Below the pieces are notes generated by a model. The model ran no database searches and was not told the origin of the DNA. It worked only from the letters and a program-made list of their open reading frames with translations. A stretch of 37,210 nucleotides of DNA, taken from IMG/VR virus record IMGVR_UViG_2713896798_000012, one strand, 5' to 3'. Both the position numbers and the translations under genes were made by a program. This document shows positions 1,825-18,153 of this stretch, piece by piece (the stretch's first letter is position 1; each line of letters begins with the position of its first letter). The stretch is from a virus. Taxonomy: Duplodnaviria; Heunggongvirae; Uroviricota; Caudoviricetes.

Positions 1825-2097
1825 TTACAGCATCATGACCGATTCGGGTTGAGGTTCAGTCGCATCGGCGACCGGTGATTCAGGCTGAACTTCACCGCTC
1901 TCTGCGGTGGTATCTCCCGCTTCAGTCGGTGGCTCTGCCTGTACACCAAGCAGTTCATCCAGAATGGCATCCACTTCTGCATCAAGACGCGCTTCCAGGT
2001 TATGGCGAAGTTTCTGTTTCAGTGCGCTCCGGACTTCTTCAGAGCGCAGGACGTCCTTCACTGCCTCTGCAGTGACCAGGGATGTAATTTCTGACAT
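1825..2097 (-). CDS. Hypothetical acidic phage protein upstream of holin
   Basis: Internal ATG of the 148-aa track ORF (MSEITSLV…), 90 aa; the track's longer N-terminus overlaps another small ORF and looks non-coding. Confidence 0.45.
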   Translation of the reverse strand: MSEITSLVTAEAVKDVLRSEEVRSALKQKLRHNLEARLDAEVDAILDELLGVQAEPPTEAGDTTAESGEVQPESPVADATEPQPESVMML

Positions 2098-2137
2098 GGG
2101 ATTTTCTCGTCGAAAGGTGTGATTAAGAAAGTTGCCG

Positions 2138-2317
2138 CTAAATGAGCGGCTCTTCGGGTTTGCTTCCGGCTGACTGACTGGCGCTGATTTTCTCAGCGGC
2201 CCTTTTGTCAATCTGTCTGCGCCAGAAGTCACGCATGGCCCTGTACCCACCCGAAAGGAGATACAGCACACAGACCACCGTACAGAAGTACAGCATTAAC
2301 TGGTTCAGAAATGTCAT
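2138..2317 (-). CDS. Small hydrophobic protein (59 aa), below ORF-track threshold
   Basis: Hand-translated ATG…TAG ORF (MTFLNQLMLYFCTVVCVLYLLSGG…) between nanS-p and the holin; weak RBS. Confidence 0.3.
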   Translation of the reverse strand: MTFLNQLMLYFCTVVCVLYLLSGGYRAMRDFWRRQIDKRAAEKISASQSAGSKPEEPLI

Positions 2318-2414
2318 AATTTCTTTCCGTTATTGTTGACAATAAGAACTGTTTTCATTAAAAACCAGAGTACGAAAGTATCGTTCCTTTATTTTTTCTC
2401 CATAGGTATCACCA

Positions 2415-2450
2415 CCGCCAGCGTCCATTCCTGTCGCTGGCGGTTTTTTT
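2415..2450 (+). terminator. Intrinsic terminator oriented on the plus strand (antisense to the late operon)
   Basis: CCGCCAGCG…CGCTGGCGG 9-bp stem followed by T7 on the plus strand; on the minus strand the stem has an A-run upstream and no T-run. Confidence 0.45.
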
Positions 2451-2451
2451 A

Positions 2452-4389
2452 TCATGCCGCAGTGTCTGTGCTGTTCACTTCCACCGCAATGCTGTCTATC
2501 AGTACCGGGTAAGTCGCACCTCTGGTAATGTCTGTCACATGCAGTTTATCCGCCGCAAAGGCACTGACCGGTGACTGCGTCAGCGTGAACGGTGTGCCAT
2601 CCTGACCATCAATAACCGGCGTCACCTGCAGGCTGTTATTCCCGGCAAAGCGGAAAGCCAGCGTATGCCATTCGTTATCAAATGCGCCAAAGGTTCCCAG
2701 TTTCAGGTTGTTTGTCGCCACTTTCGCATTGTGGTACATCACATTCAGGTCTTTTGCATCTGTCTGGATGTAGAACGCTGCCAGCAGGTTATTCCCCCCG
2801 TCTCCGGTCAGGGCAACGCCCTGTGGCAGTGAAGATACCGGCCAGTAAAACGCCATAACATACTGGTTCGCAGCCAGCGCTCCCGAAACCTTAAAGCGGC
2901 AGCGAATCTGCCCCCCTTTCTGTAACAGAGCCGCACCGTTGCCCGCGGCGTACTCCAGCACCCAGCTGCTTTTACCGGCTTCCTTGGTCAGCTTCACTGC
3001 CTTACCTCCGGTTCCCTCCGCATCGCTGACCACTTCTGCCCTGCCGCCACTGGCTGACCATCCCTGTACTTTCAGGCTTCCCTCTGACTCGCTGGCAAGG
3101 TAAGAGAGCAGTGTTGTGACGCCTGTGGCTTCTGCACCGGAAGGCGATGACGGGCGCACCTCTGATACTGTCGATGATGCCCCCGCGTTTAGCGCCACTC
3201 TTCCCGCATGGCGCAAAATCGCCGTTGCCAGACGGTCGGAAATAATCCCGCGGCGAGCCCATGAACTGAAATGGCTCGCCCTGTCCTGTGACGTCCAGGT
3301 GGCTGAGCTGTCACGCCATTTCGAACCGTAATATCCGATACCCGGAATGTCCGGGTCTTCTTCCGGTTTGTTCGTCGGCACATTCACCCCGTTCTCATCC
3401 GTCATGAACGGTACGAAATGGATATTCTTTTCCGTTTTGTTTTTATAGCTGCCATACACCGTCTGGTACGTGGATTCGTTCTTCTGCTTCCAGAAATACG
3501 TCGTGTCCCCGCATATCCAGGGAACACCGCCAGCAGAGCCACCGACGCACTGGCCTGCCATATCCGCCAGGTCTGCACGGAATTTATCAACCAGCGCACC
3601 AAACTGTGCGGCGTGATTTACCGGCGTACCGCCAAAATCAAATTCCCCCTGCATCCACACCACGGCAAACAGCACATTTTTCGGATTCTTCTTCAGTGCT
3701 GCTTTTGTTCGACCGATAAGGTCCTTATACAGCGGCTTGTCCACACCCCAGCGGGTTGAATTCTCCGAGGCACCACTCGCGTCACTGTATGTGCCATCGG
3801 CTCCGGTGGTGAACGCTGAACCACCACGACAGCACGGAACCAGCAGAATGCCCGCATTCGCCGGTATAAACGGCAGCAGTTTTTTGGCGATATGCAGCCC
3901 CTGCCCCACGGTTCCGTACTGCCCCTTTGACAGGTCCGCTTTCGGATGGTTAAGACGGCTCATGTCCTGCACATCATGCAGACAATGGTCCGCCGGAATG
4001 ATGTCGTTATATTTGCATACTGCACCGCCCGGTGTCACCGTACTGCGACGCGCTAACTGTTTAATACGTGGATCAGGGCTGTCGAATGTATCCGGCAATG
4101 GCAGTCCCTCACCGTATGACATACCATTGGACTGACCAGCAAGCGCGATCACATAGTAATATTCTGGCGCAACAGAAGGCGCTGAGGTCGTCGGACGGTT
4201 GCCTGGCTCCTCTGGTGATGAGATGCTCCCCTCACTCACAACTGGCTGGATGAACTCCGCACCATAACCAGCTGTCGAAATCAGCGCACTACCATAAGGC
4301 TGCCACCCTTCCTTCAGTTTTTGAGTTATTCGTTTCGCAAGGTCTGACGGCGACGCCGCCCTGACAACATCATAGTGTTTAAATGCCAT
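2452..4389 (-). CDS. nanS-p: Prophage sialate O-acetylesterase (NanS-p type)
   Basis: 645 aa, the size and position (between tRNAs and holin) of NanS-p esterases of Stx-type prophages; GGGAGGA RBS before ATG. Recognised from memory. Confidence 0.75.
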   Translation of the reverse strand: MAFKHYDVVRAASPSDLAKRITQKLKEGWQPYGSALISTAGYGAEFIQPVVSEGSISSPEEPGNRPTTSAPSVAPEYYYVIALAGQSNGMSYGEGLPLPDTFDSPDPRIKQLARRSTVTPGGAVCKYNDIIPADHCLHDVQDMSRLNHPKADLSKGQYGTVGQGLHIAKKLLPFIPANAGILLVPCCRGGSAFTTGADGTYSDASGASENSTRWGVDKPLYKDLIGRTKAALKKNPKNVLFAVVWMQGEFDFGGTPVNHAAQFGALVDKFRADLADMAGQCVGGSAGGVPWICGDTTYFWKQKNESTYQTVYGSYKNKTEKNIHFVPFMTDENGVNVPTNKPEEDPDIPGIGYYGSKWRDSSATWTSQDRASHFSSWARRGIISDRLATAILRHAGRVALNAGASSTVSEVRPSSPSGAEATGVTTLLSYLASESEGSLKVQGWSASGGRAEVVSDAEGTGGKAVKLTKEAGKSSWVLEYAAGNGAALLQKGGQIRCRFKVSGALAANQYVMAFYWPVSSLPQGVALTGDGGNNLLAAFYIQTDAKDLNVMYHNAKVATNNLKLGTFGAFDNEWHTLAFRFAGNNSLQVTPVIDGQDGTPFTLTQSPVSAFAADKLHVTDITRGATYPVLIDSIAVEVNSTDTAA

Positions 4390-4919
4390 GAATCCTCCCG
4401 GCCGGGATAATATTGTGAGTAAAATAAGGAGCGGGCTGAAGTCCGGAAGTTACAGGACAATGGCAGAAGGGAGACTACAGCCCGCAATTCGAAAAAGGTC
4501 GCGCAGTTGCGCAGAGTGATTACTATAGGGTATTATTCGCCAGCTGAAATATTACTTCACGTTTCATTGTTTATTCCTTGCCGCCCGCGTCTCCCAGCGC
4601 GGGCTTTTTTGTCCATAAGAAAGCCCCTCCGGAGAGGGGCTGGAGAGTGGCGCTATGTGCCATTGCATGGTGCCGGGTGCCTCCCGGTGAGTTCAGCCCG
4701 GTGCCACTAAACCCTCGTCATTCTCGTTTTGATAATCAGAGATTATACCGTCACCAGTCGCCCCTCCGCTCAGGGGGATTCACCATGCAAAACTTTTTTA
4801 ACAACTCTCCGTCAACCAGACAATCATCAACTGCCTGAATTGTGAGGCATTTAACATTTCACTGTCCAGTGTCTTTCCTGTAATAAAAAGCCCGCAAAAG
4901 CGAGCCTGGTAAATAAATA

Positions 4920-4996
4920 TGGCGCGTTGTACTGGATTCGAACCAGTGACCGATTGCTTAGAAGGCAATTGCTCTGTCCGGCTGAGCTAACAACGC
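4920..4996 (-). tRNA. argO: tRNA-Arg (anticodon UCU)
   Basis: Hand-folded 77-nt cloverleaf: acceptor GCGTTGT/ACAACGC, anticodon loop CTTCTAA, TTCGAAT T-loop, CCA end. Confidence 0.8.
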
Positions 4997-5009
4997 AGTG
5001 TGCAGATAA

Positions 5010-5086
5010 TGGACCGCCATCGAGGACTCGAACCCCGCGCAACCAGCTTCGAAGGCTGACGCTCTATCCCGATGAGCTAATGGCGG
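5010..5086 (-). tRNA. argN: tRNA-Arg (anticodon UCG)
   Basis: Hand-folded cloverleaf: acceptor CCGCCAT/ATGGCGG, anticodon loop CTTCGAA, CCA end; 5' end could be 1 nt off. Confidence 0.7.
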
Positions 5087-5093
5087 TATGTGA

Positions 5094-5169
5094 TGGTGGC
5101 CCTTGCTGGATTTGAACCAGCGACCTGGCGATTATGAGTCGCTCGCTCTCACCACTGAGCTAAAGGGCC
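5094..5169 (-). tRNA. ileZ: tRNA with CAU anticodon (Ile2/Met type)
   Basis: 76-nt cloverleaf: acceptor GGCCCTT/AAGGGCC, anticodon loop CTCATAA, T-loop TTCAAAT, CCA; first of an ileZ-argN-argO-like trio downstream of Q. Confidence 0.8.
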
Positions 5170-5330
5170 GGGCGCAGGATAATAACGGTACGTAACTAAT
5201 TCTGCAATATCATCCGTTCTGACTGACTACATTCTGAACTTCCCTGACCGTCTGCTCAAAACGCCCGCTCTCCAGCTCAACGCCAATTGCACGACGCCCT
5301 AGCGCCATTGCTGCTTTGACGCTACGGACA

Positions 5331-5360
5331 TAAAAAAGCCAGCCACTGGGGGAGGCTGGC
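5331..5360 (-). terminator. Intrinsic terminator between Q and the tRNA cluster (tR'-like)
   Basis: Minus strand GCCAGCC-loop-GGCTGGC 7-bp stem followed by T6. Confidence 0.6.
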
Positions 5361-5537
5361 AAACTCGTAGAGCAAAATGCTGTTACGCAAACTTCGTTAC
5401 AGGGTTATCCTGCAATACTTAAAATATACAATATTTAGAAAACTAATAGTGCTATATGCGATTTTTAAGATTTTGTTATTAATTACGGTCGCACCTTCCT
5501 TTCTGTGTACTTTCCGTATAGCTCACAGGATTCGGGG

Positions 5538-5562
5538 TACAAAAAAACCCGCGCATCGGCGG
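5538..5562 (-). terminator. Intrinsic terminator just downstream of Q
   Basis: Minus strand CCCGC-loop-GCGGG followed by T7. Confidence 0.55.
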
Positions 5563-5610
5563 GTTCGACTGCGTGGCAATGTAACCACTCTTATCATGAT
5601 ATGCAGATTT

Positions 5611-6045
5611 TTACGATCGTAAACTATTTTTTCGCTGATAAAATACAGAGGTTCTCCCTCCCGGCAATTCACGCTCAACATACCGATCCATCTCAAGCCT
5701 CACTCCCAGCATCATCAGCATGCCTTCAACAATCCCCTCCGCTTTGTGAAGGCGTTTACCTATACAGGTGTCAGAGCACCCATGTTTCCGTGCCAACGCC
5801 ATGAACGTCTCCCCCAACACGTAATAATCAACCAGCAAGTCATGCAGATCGCGATTGTTCCGGTAAAGGCGGGCTATGCACCCGCATATCACCATCGCAT
5901 CATCGTCACAGCACTGTGGACGTGATTTTACTTTTTCGGGGATCAGTCCCTTAAATCCGGCAGCAATGGGCGACCATGTAACATCCTCATAGTTATTTGC
6001 CGCCCATGCCCCCCAGCGCTCAAGAACCTGCCGGATATCACGCAT
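5611..6045 (-). CDS. Q: Late-gene antiterminator Q (Stx-phage/82-type)
   Basis: Start taken at [18 protein letters not shown]… (144 aa), matching my recollection of the 933W-type Q N-terminus; overlaps ninH stop by 8 nt. Confidence 0.75.
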
Positions 6046-6232
6046 CAGTATCTTTACCCCATCCGCGGTGAACCATAAGAACACCGTTGACGATAGCGTG
6101 TCTTTTCCCTTCTTTATCGCCAGTGTATTTTCTGACCGTGTTGCGACTACAGTTCAGTATTCTGGCTACCTCGGTCTGATTTTCATATGCCTCAACGAGC
6201 ATGTCAGGAATGGTTTTTACTGTGAACGTCAT
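6038..6232 (-). CDS. ninH: NinH
   Basis: 64 aa [14 protein letters not shown]…[18 protein letters not shown]…, near-identical to lambda NinH as I recall it. Confidence 0.8.
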
Positions 6233-6834
6233 GCGGCCTCACTTCTGCTGTTTCGCAGGTCTTTAAGTTTCTGCTGATACTTCGCCTTGATCGCCCTGCA
6301 TTCTTCGACAGTCCAGCGATGGCGGTTATGGTTTGATTCGATTTCGTCTACTGCTTCCTGCCCGATGCGGTTAATCAGTTCGACGCGATACGGAACGAGA
6401 TTTCCGCTTTTATGTTGGTTGCACACCACGCATTGCTTGTGAATATTGCGTTCATCAAATCGGAGTTGAGGCGCAGCAGCAGTTGTCCGGTAATGCCCGG
6501 CATCCCACTGAGCAGACGTGAGCGTTCCGCACGAGATACATGGTAAGTCGCGGTCTCTTTCTCTGATGAAGGCGTTTACGGCTTGTTGGGCTTGTTTAAT
6601 CCAGTAACTGCGGGGCTTTAAGGCGAGTTTTCGAATCTTAAGTTTATCTTTCTGTTTCTGCTCCTCTCGTCGTCGTTTCTTCTCTGCTGCCTTTTCCGCT
6701 TTTTCGCGTTCTTTGCTTCGTCGTTCGAGTGCTAATTGAGTTCCGTGTTCCGGGCTGCACCACCACTGATTTGAGAATGCCGGGTGAAACCATTCCTTAC
6801 AGATTTTGCATTTCCTTCGCGCTGGTTTAGCCAT
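6229..6834 (-). CDS. ninG: NinG (Rap) recombination-associated endonuclease
   Basis: 201 aa, close to lambda NinG (MAKPARR…WWCSPE…CVVCNQHK…). Confidence 0.9.
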
Positions 6835-7556
6835 TAAGCAGCCTCCCCTGTTACTTTCAGCATTCCGTTATCGAGCAGCTTTCTGGTCAGCCACTGTTGA
6901 CCACGCCCGGTGATTTTTGTGGTGAACGATATCTGTATTCCGTGATTTGTATTGACCGCTGTTTCTTTCACTGTGAAATAGCCGCGCTCCATATATTCCT
7001 GCATTGGCACATTTCGCCGGGAACCTGAAGCAATAAGGATTTTGTGATCGCGCATCCACGCAAACAGTTTGTTTGGACCAATACCAACAACCTTTGCAAA
7101 GTTTCCAATCAAAATTCCGCTGGCCTCGCCAACGCGATCGGCAAACTCAACTTTAGGTGCGGCAATTGCGAGCTGGTTTTCCAGTTGCATTTTCTGCTCA
7201 GCAAGATCAGCAGCAAGGCGCAACGCTTCTGGTAGCGTTTTGGGGATATTAACCGCAGCTTCTTCAAGCTCTCGCCAGCGGTCAACAAGGCGAGCGGTGA
7301 ATTCCGGCGACAGCTGGGCTACAACGACAATACTGTCTCGCTTTCCTTGTTCGCCTTCGAAGACGTAATGCTCGTACTGAACATTGAACCCTAAGTTATT
7401 GATTCTTTCGGAAACCTCAATTTGAGGAAGCCGGATAACACCATTTTTAGCCAGCGTTTCGATGGTACGTTTCACATTGTCATGACGCTTACCCACCAAC
7501 TCAGCGATTTCAATGCTTGTCATTTTGATGGCATTGCCATTTATTAACTCACTCAT
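6834..7556 (-). CDS. Rha-family phage regulatory protein / antirepressor
   Basis: 240 aa; N-terminal Rha-like region ([19 protein letters not shown]) plus antirepressor-like C-terminal part. Confidence 0.65.
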
Positions 7557-7725
7557 CGTCTTCTTCCTCGTACATTGAGCTATTCGGATCGCTCATCAGT
7601 TCTGCGCAGCAATCGGAGCACACGTGAACTTCCAGCACATGCAGCTTCTGACCGCAGTTAGCGCACGTTAAAGCCCGCTCGACGCTTTCTTTCTGGTATT
7701 GAAGGGATTGGGATGGACTAAGCAT
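7549..7725 (-). CDS. ninF: NinF
   Basis: Internal ATG giving MLSPSQSLQYQKESVERALTCANCGQKLH…, matching lambda NinF. Confidence 0.8.
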   Translation of the reverse strand: MLSPSQSLQYQKESVERALTCANCGQKLHVLEVHVCSDCCAELMSDPNSSMYEEEDDE

Positions 7726-7888
7726 GGCTTTCACCATTAAAAAGTCGCTTGTAAGCATCAATGTCTCGTTTTGCTTCACCGAGCTTTCGTCTTAATTCCA
7801 TGTTTTCTGATTCAAGCTTTTCCATGTCTTGCTGGTATCGGTCGCGGTGTTCTTTCCATGCTTTTTTATACGCCTTCATGTATGTCAT
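7718..7888 (-). CDS. Hypothetical small basic protein
   Basis: ATG with GAAAGG RBS; 56 aa (MTYMKAYKKAWKEH…); the longer track ORF begins at a GTG without RBS. Confidence 0.4.
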   Translation of the reverse strand: MTYMKAYKKAWKEHRDRYQQDMEKLESENMELRRKLGEAKRDIDAYKRLFNGESHA

Positions 7889-13854: not shown

Positions 13855-14325
13855 CTAATAAAATACCCAATTTTCTGTTTCTTGGTTGTGTCCAAAGTTA
13901 TATTCAATATCTGGTGTTGATGTATCAATATTCTTCATCCCATCAACAAGAGTTGATACAACAGCCAAATCTTGTTTGATTCTCATTAAATGGTATTTCT
14001 TCCGGCGCAATAAACTTTCAATGGCAAGTTTCTTCGTTGGGAATGCAAAAGATCTTTCTGCATTTTTTGCTACTTTCTTAATTGCATATCTATTTCTCCT
14101 TTGTTTCCATTCCTGTAACCACTGATTTGGTGCTGGTTTAAAATTAACAATCCAATGCGCAGGAACCAACCATGCATAATGCTCTGTCTGATGAAAAGCT
14201 ATATATTGAAGTGCGTATATTTTGATCCCATCTTCTTCAACTGTCGCCTGGAATCTCCAGAAAACAGGCATTCCATCATGTTCAGTTTCTGATTCAGGAA
14301 AAGGTACGCTCCATGATTTTGTCAT
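13855..14325 (-). CDS. Hypothetical protein (AT-rich insert between N and cIII)
   Basis: 156 aa; strong GAGGTGA RBS; visibly AT-rich; followed by a 9-bp-arm hairpin and terminator. Confidence 0.6.
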   Translation of the reverse strand: MTKSWSVPFPESETEHDGMPVFWRFQATVEEDGIKIYALQYIAFHQTEHYAWLVPAHWIVNFKPAPNQWLQEWKQRRNRYAIKKVAKNAERSFAFPTKKLAIESLLRRKKYHLMRIKQDLAVVSTLVDGMKNIDTSTPDIEYNFGHNQETENWVFY

Positions 14326-14383: not shown

Positions 14384-14767
14384 TCATCTTGCTGTCAGTT
14401 GTTTTGATTTCCGGTAGCCTGCCGCGTAAAGAGCTACGTTTGGAAGACATACACCAGTTTCTGGTTGCTTATGTCCAAACTCATTCGCGTACACAATGGC
14501 CGCTCGCTCCAGATTGCGTCTGTATTCTTTCTGTTGCCAGATCACGTCCTGTGCCATGAACTTAATTGGCTTAGCGTCTTCTATGCGCTCAGGCGTTTCG
14601 TGAGTACCTTTAGCCTGAATCTGCGCTCTGCTTAGAGTAGGGCGGTGTAATACTTCTGAACTTATTGCTTCTTCGCGGGCCAGCACGCCGTTAGCTAATG
14701 CCTTTGCCTTTAAACGCTCACGACGACGAGAACGTGAATTGCCTTTGAACTGAGTTCTGCGTGTCAT
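14384..14767 (-). CDS. N: Antiterminator N (Stx-phage/H-19B-type)
   Basis: 127 aa with arginine-rich motif RRTQFKGNSRSRRRERLKAKA; AGGAGG RBS; lies immediately downstream of the pL/nutL region. Confidence 0.8.
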   Translation of the reverse strand: MTRRTQFKGNSRSRRRERLKAKALANGVLAREEAISSEVLHRPTLSRAQIQAKGTHETPERIEDAKPIKFMAQDVIWQQKEYRRNLERAAIVYANEFGHKQPETGVCLPNVALYAAGYRKSKQLTAR

Positions 14768-14947: not shown

Positions 14948-15019
14948 CGTAGATTCATATTCGAATCGTTGTATATTCACCGCCATGGTGAGTAGTGCGT
15001 CCTGCTGATGGGTGAACTT

Positions 15020-15070
15020 TATCGGAATGATAAATTAATGGCAATAGCAAAATGATAAATTCTCTTGGTT
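15020..15070 (-). promoter_or_regulatory. Putative oL/pL operator-promoter region
   Basis: Two copies of ATGATAAAT 25 bp apart (15027, 15052); the same motif recurs in the cI-cro intergenic region. Confidence 0.5.
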
Positions 15071-15240
15071 TTCAAAAATCGTATTGATTCTTATGGTGTT
15101 TTATTTTGTTGTAGGAATTCGACAGGATAAATAAAGAGATTTGAGGGAGATCTGGATTGCGTTGTTTAGCAAGTTGTATCTATCAATTTTTCAATAAATA
15201 CAATTGGTTATGTTTTTTAGGTGTGGGGATCGCGAGGCAA

Positions 15241-15264
15241 AGAAAACCCGGCGCTGAGGCCGGG
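15241..15264 (-). terminator. Intrinsic terminator after the rex-position cassette
   Basis: CCCGGC-GCTGAG-GCCGGG palindrome followed by TTTTCT on the minus strand, directly after the 250-aa ORF stop. Confidence 0.55.
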
Positions 15265-15269
15265 TTGTA

Positions 15270-16022
15270 TTATGCTGCAAGTCTCTTAACCCAAGTCTCT
15301 CTTTTGGAGAATGGTAGAACTTGGCTTGATTCATGGAAGAGTAAGGAGAGTTGTTGCATTTGATCACCAATTGCTTCGCTGTCTATAACAACAAATCTGT
15401 TGTTATACTCCTCACTTGAAGCTTTAAGATCAATTAGTTTCCCAAGCAATGAGTAAGCACTATTCCAGCTTCCTCCGTGTTTCACGCTTGATGTAAAAAC
15501 GTATTTAGGTATGTCGGTTTTTATTGTTACAGGGACGGTAATTTGATGTCCACTCAAGCCATATACGTTTTCACGAAGAGAAAGTGCGTCTCTAAGCTCT
15601 GTGTGATATAGATAATCAATAACCATACTTTCAAACTTTTCAGCTTGAACTGGCTGATACCAGTCTAACGACAAAGTTGATGCGAGTATACCAGCTCTAA
15701 TTATGTTCGATGTAATCGCACCTACATCCTTTTCTGTTGCCCAAGCAATGATTTCTCCTCGAGCATTGAGTTCTGCGCCTTCTTTAAGCAGTAATTGTCG
15801 TATCTCATCAAGTCGTTTTTTGGTAAGCGAGATCCCTCTTGCCTCCATATTCATTAAGGCATCGCATCTGTCACTAACTAAATACCTACCATTGACTTCA
15901 CGGATAAAGGCACCGACATGCTCTCCATCATCACAGTAAGTGAATGGACTGATAATTCTCAAGGTCTTGCCTATTGGATGGCATTCGAAACCTAGTTGTG
16001 AGATCACTGTTGAGCACATCAT
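15270..16022 (-). CDS. Unknown protein B of the rex-position cassette (250 aa)
   Basis: ATG overlaps upstream stop (ATGA); no recognisable motif, no obvious TM segments. Confidence 0.6.
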   Translation of the reverse strand: MMCSTVISQLGFECHPIGKTLRIISPFTYCDDGEHVGAFIREVNGRYLVSDRCDALMNMEARGISLTKKRLDEIRQLLLKEGAELNARGEIIAWATEKDVGAITSNIIRAGILASTLSLDWYQPVQAEKFESMVIDYLYHTELRDALSLRENVYGLSGHQITVPVTIKTDIPKYVFTSSVKHGGSWNSAYSLLGKLIDLKASSEEYNNRFVVIDSEAIGDQMQQLSLLFHESSQVLPFSKRETWVKRLAA

Positions 16023-16576
16023 ATTCCAAACCCCATTTGCCCCGACTCATCTTCAAGCGGTAAAGGTATTCTCCCAGAGTAAGTTATGTTCAGATGTTTA
16101 CAGAAGTAATTCCAATACCCTACCAGGTCATCTGGGTTTATGTCATCTTCGATTGGAAACGCTATTCTATCACTATAGTATCCAGCTTCTTCATAGTATA
16201 CATGGTAGTGAGCACCGTAAATGATATCTTGGTACTTCGGATGATCGACCTTGTAACTATTCGTGTGTTTGTCAAAGTGATAGGTATCTACCGCGAAAAC
16301 CCTCTTGTTATGATAGAAAGCAATAATATTTATTTTAGGGTAAGAAATCGGGTCATCAGGTTCTGAATCCTGATCTGGTTTCCATTTCAGTTCAAACTTT
16401 AGCCCTTGTATAGGTATACAATCCTCATCCAAGGGGATGATATGAGCTTGTAGCCACATATCAGAGCGACTTGGTTTCTGTTTCCATTTAACGCCAGAAA
16501 AGTTAACTATTTTTTTACAATAAAGTACTTTATCAACTTCTACTTGGCTTGGCTGATAATCATCTATTTTTGCCAA
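16019..16576 (-). CDS. Unknown protein A of the rex-position cassette (185 aa)
   Basis: TTG start per ORF track, 90 bp downstream of cI on the same strand; aromatic- and acidic-rich; no recognisable family. Confidence 0.55.
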   Translation of the reverse strand: MAKIDDYQPSQVEVDKVLYCKKIVNFSGVKWKQKPSRSDMWLQAHIIPLDEDCIPIQGLKFELKWKPDQDSEPDDPISYPKINIIAFYHNKRVFAVDTYHFDKHTNSYKVDHPKYQDIIYGAHYHVYYEEAGYYSDRIAFPIEDDINPDDLVGYWNYFCKHLNITYSGRIPLPLEDESGQMGFGI

Positions 16577-16666
16577 TGTTTACCGCCCTGTAAATTGTAG
16601 ATAAAAGTGGTTTCATCACCCAAACGTCTCTTCTGGCCACTGGCTATCAGCTATGTGACGATGAAG

Positions 16667-17371
16667 TCACGAACTTTTCAGCCACTCCCTTGCCTCGATG
16701 TCATCCAGATGGCGAGATTGCTTCAGAATACCAGCCACATACTCCACCTTTGCTACTTGATGATAAGGCAACGTTATAGGCCTGTGATCCTGGTTAATGC
16801 TTGTAAATTGGTATTCTCCATCTCTGTCATAGCCAAGAACCTTAATCATGTTGTGTCCTTCAACGGTTCTGACAAACACCTCATCACCCGGGAATACTTT
16901 GGTGTTAGGCTCAATGAGTACATATTCTCCTGATTTTATTCTGGGCCACATGCTGTCTCCTTTCACACGAAGACCAAAGGCATCTGGATCATCGCTATAA
17001 ATTTTGAGCCACCCATCGCGCTCTTCGGTCATCTCGATGGCACCATCAACACCAAGAATTGCCTCACCAACCACGCGCACTAACCCTTTTCTTACCTGAC
17101 CGACAAAAGTTAAAGAATCTGAGCATGATGCAATTGGTGTTACATCATGTACCAAATCAAGCCACCCATTAGGTAACCCAAGCGCGGCTTCAAATTTTCT
17201 TGCTAGTTTATCCCCTATGTTTCGAGTGCTTTTTTCACCGGAGACTTGCGTGAGTTGAGAAGGGCTAACCCCAAGCTTATCGGCAAAGCTTGCATTAGTG
17301 TTACCCGCGATTTTTTTATGCTCATCTAGCAAAAACGCCAGATTCGATTTGCGAATATCTTTGTTTTCCAT
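16667..17371 (-). CDS. cI: CI-type prophage repressor (HTH plus S24 LexA-like peptidase domain)
   Basis: 234 aa; N-terminal HTH; C-terminal autocleavage domain with GDSMWP Ser motif; divergent from cro. Confidence 0.85.
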   Translation of the reverse strand: MENKDIRKSNLAFLLDEHKKIAGNTNASFADKLGVSPSQLTQVSGEKSTRNIGDKLARKFEAALGLPNGWLDLVHDVTPIASCSDSLTFVGQVRKGLVRVVGEAILGVDGAIEMTEERDGWLKIYSDDPDAFGLRVKGDSMWPRIKSGEYVLIEPNTKVFPGDEVFVRTVEGHNMIKVLGYDRDGEYQFTSINQDHRPITLPYHQVAKVEYVAGILKQSRHLDDIEAREWLKSS

Positions 17372-17484
17372 CTCACAATTTTCCCTCTATTTAGCAAATG
17401 GATAAATACGCAATATGATAAATTTACATTGCGGTTGATTTATCAAAATGGTAAAGTTATTCTGTGTGATAAACGGAGGCACTA
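17372..17484. promoter_or_regulatory. Putative oR operator region with divergent pRM/pR
   Basis: Several TGATAAA(T) half-sites in both orientations (about 17400, 17415, 17437, 17467) between cI and cro. Confidence 0.5.
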
Positions 17485-17718: not shown

Positions 17719-17856
17719 GTAACACCGCTATTTTCACAATGGACATTCGTCCTACGTCGCTGACAAAGCGAGTCCCAATATATCTGACCAACTAAGGCTA
17801 CATGCGTTTCCACGCATACCTTTCAACTAACTATTCACTATTGGAAATCTTAAGAA

Positions 17857-18153
17857 ATGGAACAAACAAGTTACAGCAAACTATCCCAGCGTGACGTTGA
17901 TCGCGCAGAAACAGATTTACTCATCAACCTGTCAACGCTTACCCAGCGCGGTCTGGCAAAGATGATTGGCTGTCATGAATCGAAGATAAGCAGAACGGAC
18001 TGGAGGTTTATTGCTTCGGTCCTGTGTGCTTTCGGAATGGCATCAGACATCAGTCCGATTAGCAGGGCTTTTAAGTATGCGCTTGATGGACTCACCAATA
18101 AAAAACGCCCGGCGGCAACCGAGCGTTCTGAACAAATACAAATGGAATTTTAA
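17857..18153 (+). CDS. cII: CII transcriptional activator
   Basis: 98 aa; C-terminal half (…LTNKKRPAATERSEQIQMEF) essentially identical to lambda CII. Confidence 0.85.
   Translation: MEQTSYSKLSQRDVDRAETDLLINLSTLTQRGLAKMIGCHESKISRTDWRFIASVLCAFGMASDISPISRAFKYALDGLTNKKRPAATERSEQIQMEF

Follow-up and report, generated by a model that had tools for sequence, protein, structure and literature searches.

Organization of the interval between cI and N

We analyzed a stretch of 37,210 nt from a Caudoviricetes virus (IMG/VR record IMGVR_UViG_2713896798_000012; the window hereafter means this whole stretch), with a focus on a two-gene cassette, here called A-B, that lies beside the phage repressor gene cI and is a candidate anti-phage module. 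A 1.6-kb query spanning the cassette (15100-16700) was 100% identical to the Shiga toxin 1a (Stx1a)-converting phage Stx1_121427. All features of the interval are on the minus strand, in the order cI, a 90-bp spacer, open reading frame (ORF) A, ORF B, an intrinsic terminator, oL/pL, and N. ORF A (16019..16576) encodes a soluble, beta-rich protein of 185 amino acids (aa), and ORF B (15270..16022) a soluble, two-domain protein of 250 aa. In the sequence, the 4 bp ATGA at 16019..16022 contain both the stop codon of A and the start codon of B, implying that the two genes are putatively coupled in translation. The original prediction, which was made from the letters alone, had described both ORFs and their overlap as found here; one correction to it is that A begins with TTG and not with ATG. 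The TTG start is supported because homologues share the N-terminus MAK..DY.P.Q.EVD, which is largely invariant among them.

Upstream of the pair, cI (16667..17371) encodes a 234-aa repressor with a Peptidase_S24 domain and a weak, sub-threshold helix-turn-helix (HTH) match. A terminator scan of the 90-bp gap between cI and A (16577..16666) returned no terminator-like site, in agreement with the prediction that none would intervene, and the gap did not fold better than shuffled sequence (z = -1.0). A transcript reading through from the cI promoters over A-B would be expected. The cI-A-B unit ends at an intrinsic terminator (15245..15266; stem 15266..15245 with 8 pairs, 6 of them G-C, then TTCTTT), which is real, with a position 2 nt away from the one first proposed for it (15241-15264). 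The same terminator is also present in phage AU5Stx1, which does not carry the cassette, and belongs to the common backbone.

Beyond the terminator come a repeat-rich oL/pL region (15016..15060) and then N, as anticipated. The former contains two TGATAAAT operator half-sites (15028-15035 and 15053-15060) and, by promoter scan, a pL-like promoter (15044..15016; TTGCCA, 17-nt spacer, TAAAGT). Further TGATAAAT sites lie in oR beside cro, at 17416 and 17438 (17416-17445), and the window holds seven such sites versus 1.8 expected. The antiterminator gene N (14384..14767; Pfam N_peptide, E = 9.8e-16) is the first gene of the pL operon and the far border of the slot described below. The pair hence lies on the same strand as cI, with cI on one side and oL/pL on the other, which is the rex-like position to which the original prediction had drawn attention. 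The segment had also been judged AT-rich by eye. While the cassette does have a GC content of 39.3%, lower than those of cI (44.7%), N (48.7%), and the window as a whole (48.3%), low GC is not specific to it, because most of the left arm (~11.5-17.5 kb) is equally AT-rich at ~39-43% GC, with the exception of one 50% bin over N.

An exchangeable slot linked to prophage repressors

Comparison of the cI-to-N interval across related prophages, which had been proposed along with the prediction, revealed that the A-B pair is swappable cargo in a defined slot, found empty, PD-lambda-2-like, or occupied by A-B. BLAST boundaries against sister phages delimit the exchangeable segment to 15268..16614, with borders at 15266-15268 and 16614/16615 that are common to the window, AU5Stx1, and BP-4795. 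In AU5Stx1, which has the same cI and N as the window, the slot is empty, i.e., it holds 337 bp of unrelated DNA, with homology resuming at 15267. BP-4795, also with the same cI and N, carries three genes between borders 15265, where homology resumes, and 16614. These genes match PD-Lambda-2_A (E = 2.5e-42; HigB-like toxin), PD-Lambda-2_B (E = 3.8e-50, N-terminal part only), and PD-T4-9_C, and PD-lambda-2 is an experimentally validated, toxin-antitoxin-like abortive-infection defense (Vassallo et al. 2022). Annotated as hypothetical in BP-4795 (3676-5017 of the fetched locus), they look like an unannotated defense cassette in an Stx phage. In phages ev017, ev207, PhiR57_1, and PhiR63_2 and in the prophages of UTI89 and Nissle 1917, A-B occupies the slot next to a different cI and a lambda-type N, with 98.5% homology to the window over 15138-16645. 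Since the same cI occurs without the pair in AU5Stx1 and BP-4795, the pair is not needed for the lysis-lysogeny switch.

At every related locus examined, A-B was located downstream of a prophage repressor gene, on the repressor strand and opposite a cro-like gene, and displayed the 4-bp overlap. This linkage was seen in prophages of eight genera and in one Pseudomonas phage, and it involves several repressor types. Salmonella prophages carry the pair beside the pncB (NAPRTase) gene, with short HTH repressors of 128-131 aa; short repressors were likewise found in Klebsiella and Photorhabdus prophages, and S24 repressors in Thorsellia and Pectobacterium prophages as well as in Aeromonas caviae, whose A is 37% identical to that of the window. 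Overall, the short HTH-type repressors beside the pair measure 121-131 aa, and the long S24-type ones vary in length. A was the next gene after the repressor at all loci except in the D3-like Pseudomonas phage vB_PaD_phPA-G, where one extra gene (216 aa, no Pfam match) stands between cI and A. The A homologue of that phage is an ORF left unannotated in GenBank (3420-4004 of the fetched locus, plus strand) that shares 4 bp with the annotated B homologue; it has the HxN...HxH...GYAEP...GQ motifs and an internal MAK start.

A pair that tuned the lysis-lysogeny switch or prophage induction, without acting on foreign phages, would account for its strict association with repressor genes in all lineages sampled. 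Lambda RexA and RexB are reported to help the transition to lytic growth, and the nucleic-acid-enzyme fold of B described below could bind operator DNA. However, the pair is carried next to both long S24-type and short HTH-type repressors, and phages with the same cI/oL/oR/N set have an empty slot or other cargo in it. A dedicated switch component should co-vary with the repressor, yet the pair is independent of repressor type, which makes a switch-tuning role very unlikely. A dedicated partner of cI was rejected on the same two observations, the variety of repressors and the occurrence of the same cI without the pair. These observations also make a shared repressor transcript, rather than physical partnership, the best explanation of the linkage.

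Of the seven lineages in which the conserved MAK-type start of A was checked, six have TTG or GTG there and Thorsellia has ATG; the start is ambiguous in the Pseudomonas phage. Such non-ATG codons may reflect selection for low translation of A. A search of 5,426 complete E. coli genomes found the pair in 241 (~4%) at an identity of at least 99%, with one chromosomal copy in each, and named carriers include UTI89, ABU 83972, and Nissle 1917. No plasmid copy of B was found by tblastn against 72,556 plasmids. B has 47 and A 26 cluster representatives, whose named members all belong to Enterobacterales or Aeromonas. When the E. coli copy was compared with that of Salmonella, nonsynonymous divergence (pN) was 0.16 for A and 0.09 for B, and synonymous divergence (pS), which is saturated, was 0.88 and 0.74, respectively. 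A and B are real genes under strong purifying selection.

In the Nissle 1917 prophage, which lies at icd, the integrase is truncated, an IS3-family element (ISEc52) is inserted, and the recombination genes are lost, yet cI, A, B, sieB, and two small ORFs remain intact (1996-7044 of the fetched locus). Retention of the pair in a decayed prophage would be expected if the genes benefit the host. The same retention also fits an addiction (toxin-antitoxin) module that would stabilize the prophage by penalizing its loss, instead of mainly blocking phages. Such a module would account for the small size of the two genes, for their 4-bp overlap, and for the conserved weak start codon of the first one; the cargo of a sister phage in the very same slot is itself toxin-antitoxin-like, and DS-6B of the HipAD system, which contains DUF1829 as B does, has been proposed to be antitoxin-like. 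However, neither A nor B matched a known toxin or antitoxin family, or showed a DNA-binding antitoxin domain, in Pfam, NCBIfam, or PADLOC. In addition, many toxin-antitoxin systems in such a position act as abortive infection, so that addiction, in itself an unlikely explanation, largely overlaps with a role of the pair as an anti-phage module.

Several other features were observed in the interval and its surroundings. In Salmonella and Klebsiella prophages, B is followed after ~25-35 bp by a small ORF (57-68 aa) called on the other strand, at a position where the E. coli window has the terminator and oL/pL instead. Directly downstream of N lies a 156-aa early-left ORF (13855-14325, minus strand) without a family match, which is kept at the same place as a "hypothetical protein" in AU5Stx1 and BP-4795. 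Farther away, on the plus strand, an O-type replication protein (18451-19398) contains a His/Ala-rich imperfect repeat in its middle, the middle of the lambdoid O gene being the usual place of ori iterons. It is followed by a DnaB-type replicative helicase of 797 aa (19395-21788, plus strand) that is interrupted by an insert resembling an intein; in Pfam, it matches the DnaB N-terminal domain, the DnaB C-terminal domain split over two separate stretches, and, around residues 393-454, a LAGLIDADG homing-endonuclease domain.

Protein families and earlier catalogues

The original prediction had recognized no family in either protein, which held partly for A and not for B. Residues 26-110 of B match Pfam DUF1828 with 33.5 bits, above the gathering score of 22. 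In the AlphaFold model of B (pLDDT 84), two domains are apparent: an N-terminal domain (~1-120), corresponding to DUF1828, with a YbjN / type-III-chaperone-like fold, and a C-terminal domain (~125-250), corresponding to DUF1829, with a restriction-endonuclease fold of the PD-(D/E)xK clan (alpha-beta-beta-beta-alpha-beta core). HHpred results published with DefensePredictor likewise assign residues 155-241 to DUF1829 (Pfam clan PDDEXK) with 98.8% probability (PMC13092281). The invariant residues of the C-terminal domain are H159, K173, T177, D198, R209, D214, and Q224. B also matches the PADLOC model PDC-M24B over nearly its entire length (E = 4.7e-10; residues 2-249 to model positions 4-254 of 256).

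The A family is rare, with 32 cluster representatives at E ≤ 1e-3 among 1.84 billion. Its invariant residues are W31, R92, N106, H123, H125, F158, and P173, with D97, H104, G121, and Q180 near-invariant, and the resulting HxN...GxHxH cluster looks like a putative metal or catalytic site. A reaches Pfam DUF6978 only below threshold (22 bits versus a gathering score of 29.6), and its match to PDC-M24A, which falls over the His-cluster region, is weak and partial (E = 4.8e-4; residues 104-163 to model positions 79-134 of 148). Across the family, 7 of 23 members match DUF6978 and 6 match PDC-M24A (best E = 1.5e-6), two other PDC-M24A models matching 3 and 2 of the 23. The first 100 residues of A occur in the prophage sub-family only.

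Profile searches of both families against PDB sequences returned nothing below E = 0.2, NCBIfam gave no match for A or B, and the PHROGs families that they match are unassigned in function. Neither protein matched RexA (Pfam PF15969) at E ≤ 1. Membrane segments were also absent from both by 19-residue Kyte-Doolittle analysis, with top means of 0.45 for A and 1.19 for B, bearing out the earlier view that neither is a multi-pass membrane protein. The literature searched contained no functional work on PDC-M24, DUF1828, DUF6978, or the PhiR57/PhiR63 phages.

The description of the pair as unrecognized is out of date, as the candidate is already known, having been catalogued twice by computation, once as a PADLOC family and once by DefensePredictor with the exact proteins. 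PDC-M24 corresponds to cassette CAS_00098 (FAM_00129>>FAM_00065, 153 instances) and is one of 145 PADLOC candidates retrieved through guilt-by-embedding in BREX, DISARM, and type I restriction-modification loci (Payne et al. 2024, 10.1101/2024.01.29.577857), the source from which we also took the context of the distant PDC-M24A-like clade. Judged by its profile matches, the A-B pair is a divergent relative of this candidate family. PADLOC itself would probably not call A, given its coverage rules. In DefensePredictor (DeWeirdt, Mahoney and Laub, Science 2026, PMC13092281, Tables S5 and S10), A corresponds to WP_001062368.1 and B to WP_000968518.1, both labelled "Predicted novel defense gene". 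Their mean log-odds of 4.90 and 5.64, respectively, exceed the stringent cut-off of 4 used there (PMC13092281). The UTI89/Nissle copy listed there has zero amino-acid differences from that of the window.

DefensePredictor validated 45% of the units tested (PMC13092281). With ~55% of tested units giving no protection and with no informative match for the fold of A, the pair could instead be cargo with some other benefit, such as metabolism, stress tolerance, or virulence, the defense signals being false positives. However, neither protein has a membrane segment or matches a metabolic or virulence family in Pfam or NCBIfam, the family was found only in temperate-phage immunity regions at every locus sampled, and three independent context signals stand on the side of defense. 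We consider cargo of this other kind improbable.

A candidate anti-phage module and its relation to known systems

The three context signals, namely, the relation to a PADLOC candidate family, the nature of the slot cargo, and the DefensePredictor calls, point to defense as the predicted function of the pair. All computational tests run (slot, position, PADLOC, and DefensePredictor) also agree with the exclusion or defense module expressed in lysogens that had originally been put forward. Taken together, we find it fairly probable that A-B is an anti-phage (defense or abortive-infection) module expressed in lysogens. Our confidence in which of the two proteins is the effector is much lower.

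In such a module, read-through from the cI transcript would ensure constant low-level expression of the pair in lysogens, and the TTG/GTG start of A combined with ATGA coupling to B would keep A low and the A:B ratio fixed. The two soluble proteins would form a complex, in which the chaperone-like DUF1828 domain of B could be the binding or sensing part and its DUF1829 domain could contact nucleic acid, whether by acting as a nuclease or, if catalytically dead, by binding DNA. A might contribute a metal-dependent activity through its invariant His cluster. A superinfecting phage would then trigger the complex via B and be stopped, most likely by toxin-antitoxin-like abortive infection or by nucleic-acid attack. 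The effector step could be cleavage of nucleic acid by B, whose nuclease activity is possible given its predicted fold, or an activity of A that B restrains in toxin-antitoxin fashion. A bolder proposal is that A-B represents a mechanistically new abortive-infection system, in which A would be a metalloenzyme without a relative of solved fold that uses the HxN...GxHxH cluster, and B, made of a chaperone-like and a degenerate endonuclease-fold domain, a sensor restraining and then releasing A, the pair riding repressor transcripts of temperate phages across Gammaproteobacteria and possibly being the Nissle factor of Bury et al. 2018 discussed below; we regard this combination as doubtful.

Several observations weigh against A-B being a defense module or against the mechanism outlined for it. 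Brenes and Laub reportedly screened E. coli prophage DNA against temperate phages in 2025, and PhiR57_1 and PhiR63_2 presumably come from that work. No published test of A-B was found in the literature searched, a coverage that did not extend to Brenes and Laub 2025, which may include one. About half of machine-learning predictions fail validation, and A-B appears neither among the 94 units screened by DefensePredictor (Table S6) nor among its validated systems (Table S8; PMC13092281). The position beside cI would also fit a prophage-maintenance or switch-tuning role. At the protein level, the match of A to PDC-M24A and DUF6978 is weak and limited to its C-terminal part, and no structural relative of A was found, making any effector assignment a guess. 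An invariant canonical D...(D/E)xK triad was not found across the family alignment of B; the S-x-K181...D198 arrangement of E. coli B resembles the Cfr10I/NgoMIV type, but position 181 is K, R, Q, N, or L depending on the family member.

The presence of the pair in Nissle 1917 may bear on the reported resistance of this strain to Stx and lambda phages. Bury et al. 2018 reported that a Nissle "phage repressor (pr)", EcN_1294, gives K-12 protection from lambda and Stx phages. In that study, the primers used for cloning and for qPCR map to a CII-family gene, the ORF at 17857-18153 of the window (region 17811-18112 of the window and 7431-7732 of the Nissle locus). The idea that A-B had already been tested as "pr" was rejected, since the published primers hit the cII homologue and neither cI nor the cassette. 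A further "unidentified factor" for Nissle resistance was suspected in defective prophage 3 (Bury et al. 2018), and this factor could be the adjacent A-B pair or sieB.

If A-B is a working defense, it would add a system made of two uncharacterized families (DUF6978-like, and DUF1828 with DUF1829) to the anti-phage repertoire. The cI-pL interval of Stx and other lambdoid phages would then be a defined, exchangeable defense slot, with alleles that include rex-type genes, PD-lambda-2-like cassettes, and A-B. Carried by ~4% of complete E. coli genomes and by an Stx1a phage, the pair could affect which phages, including Stx-converting and therapeutic ones, infect these bacteria. Its non-ATG start and repressor linkage would also offer a concrete model for the safe dosing of a potentially toxic prophage module. 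Beyond the two existing catalogues, the value that remains lies in the repressor linkage, the defined slot with its alternative defense alleles, and the biochemistry of A and B.

The DefensePredictor paper is silent on the mechanism of A-B and on its linkage to cI; PD-(D/E)xK, the clan to which the C-terminal fold of B belongs, is the commonest domain among the systems that it validated (PMC13092281). Like PDC-M24, A-B consists of two adjacent genes on one strand with A upstream of B, but the former is embedded in BREX, DISARM, and type I restriction-modification loci, whereas the sub-family described here is located in prophage immunity regions. The pair resembles lambda rexA-rexB in having two genes on the cI strand, between cI and the terminator before oL/pL, with presumed expression in lysogens. 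In contrast to rexA-rexB, it has no homology to RexA, no multi-pass membrane protein of the RexB type, and different folds. A Rex-like mechanism based on membrane depolarization was excluded on the lack of RexA homology and of a membrane protein.

The PD-lambda-2-like cassette of BP-4795 shares with A-B the slot, its borders, cI, and N, and is also a small multi-gene cassette, but its proteins (a HigB-like toxin, an HTH protein, and a third component) are unrelated to A and B, so that it is an alternative allele of the slot and not a homologue. As in type II toxin-antitoxin systems, the two genes of the pair are small, co-oriented, and overlapping. The validated HipAD/DS-6 system is likewise a two-gene operon, and its downstream protein, DS-6B, contains DUF1829, the DUF1829 protein having been proposed as an antitoxin-like DNA-binding partner rather than the effector (PMC13092281). 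Unlike A-B, HipAD/DS-6 has a HipA-like kinase as the partner, and DS-6B has DUF3037 where B has DUF1828.

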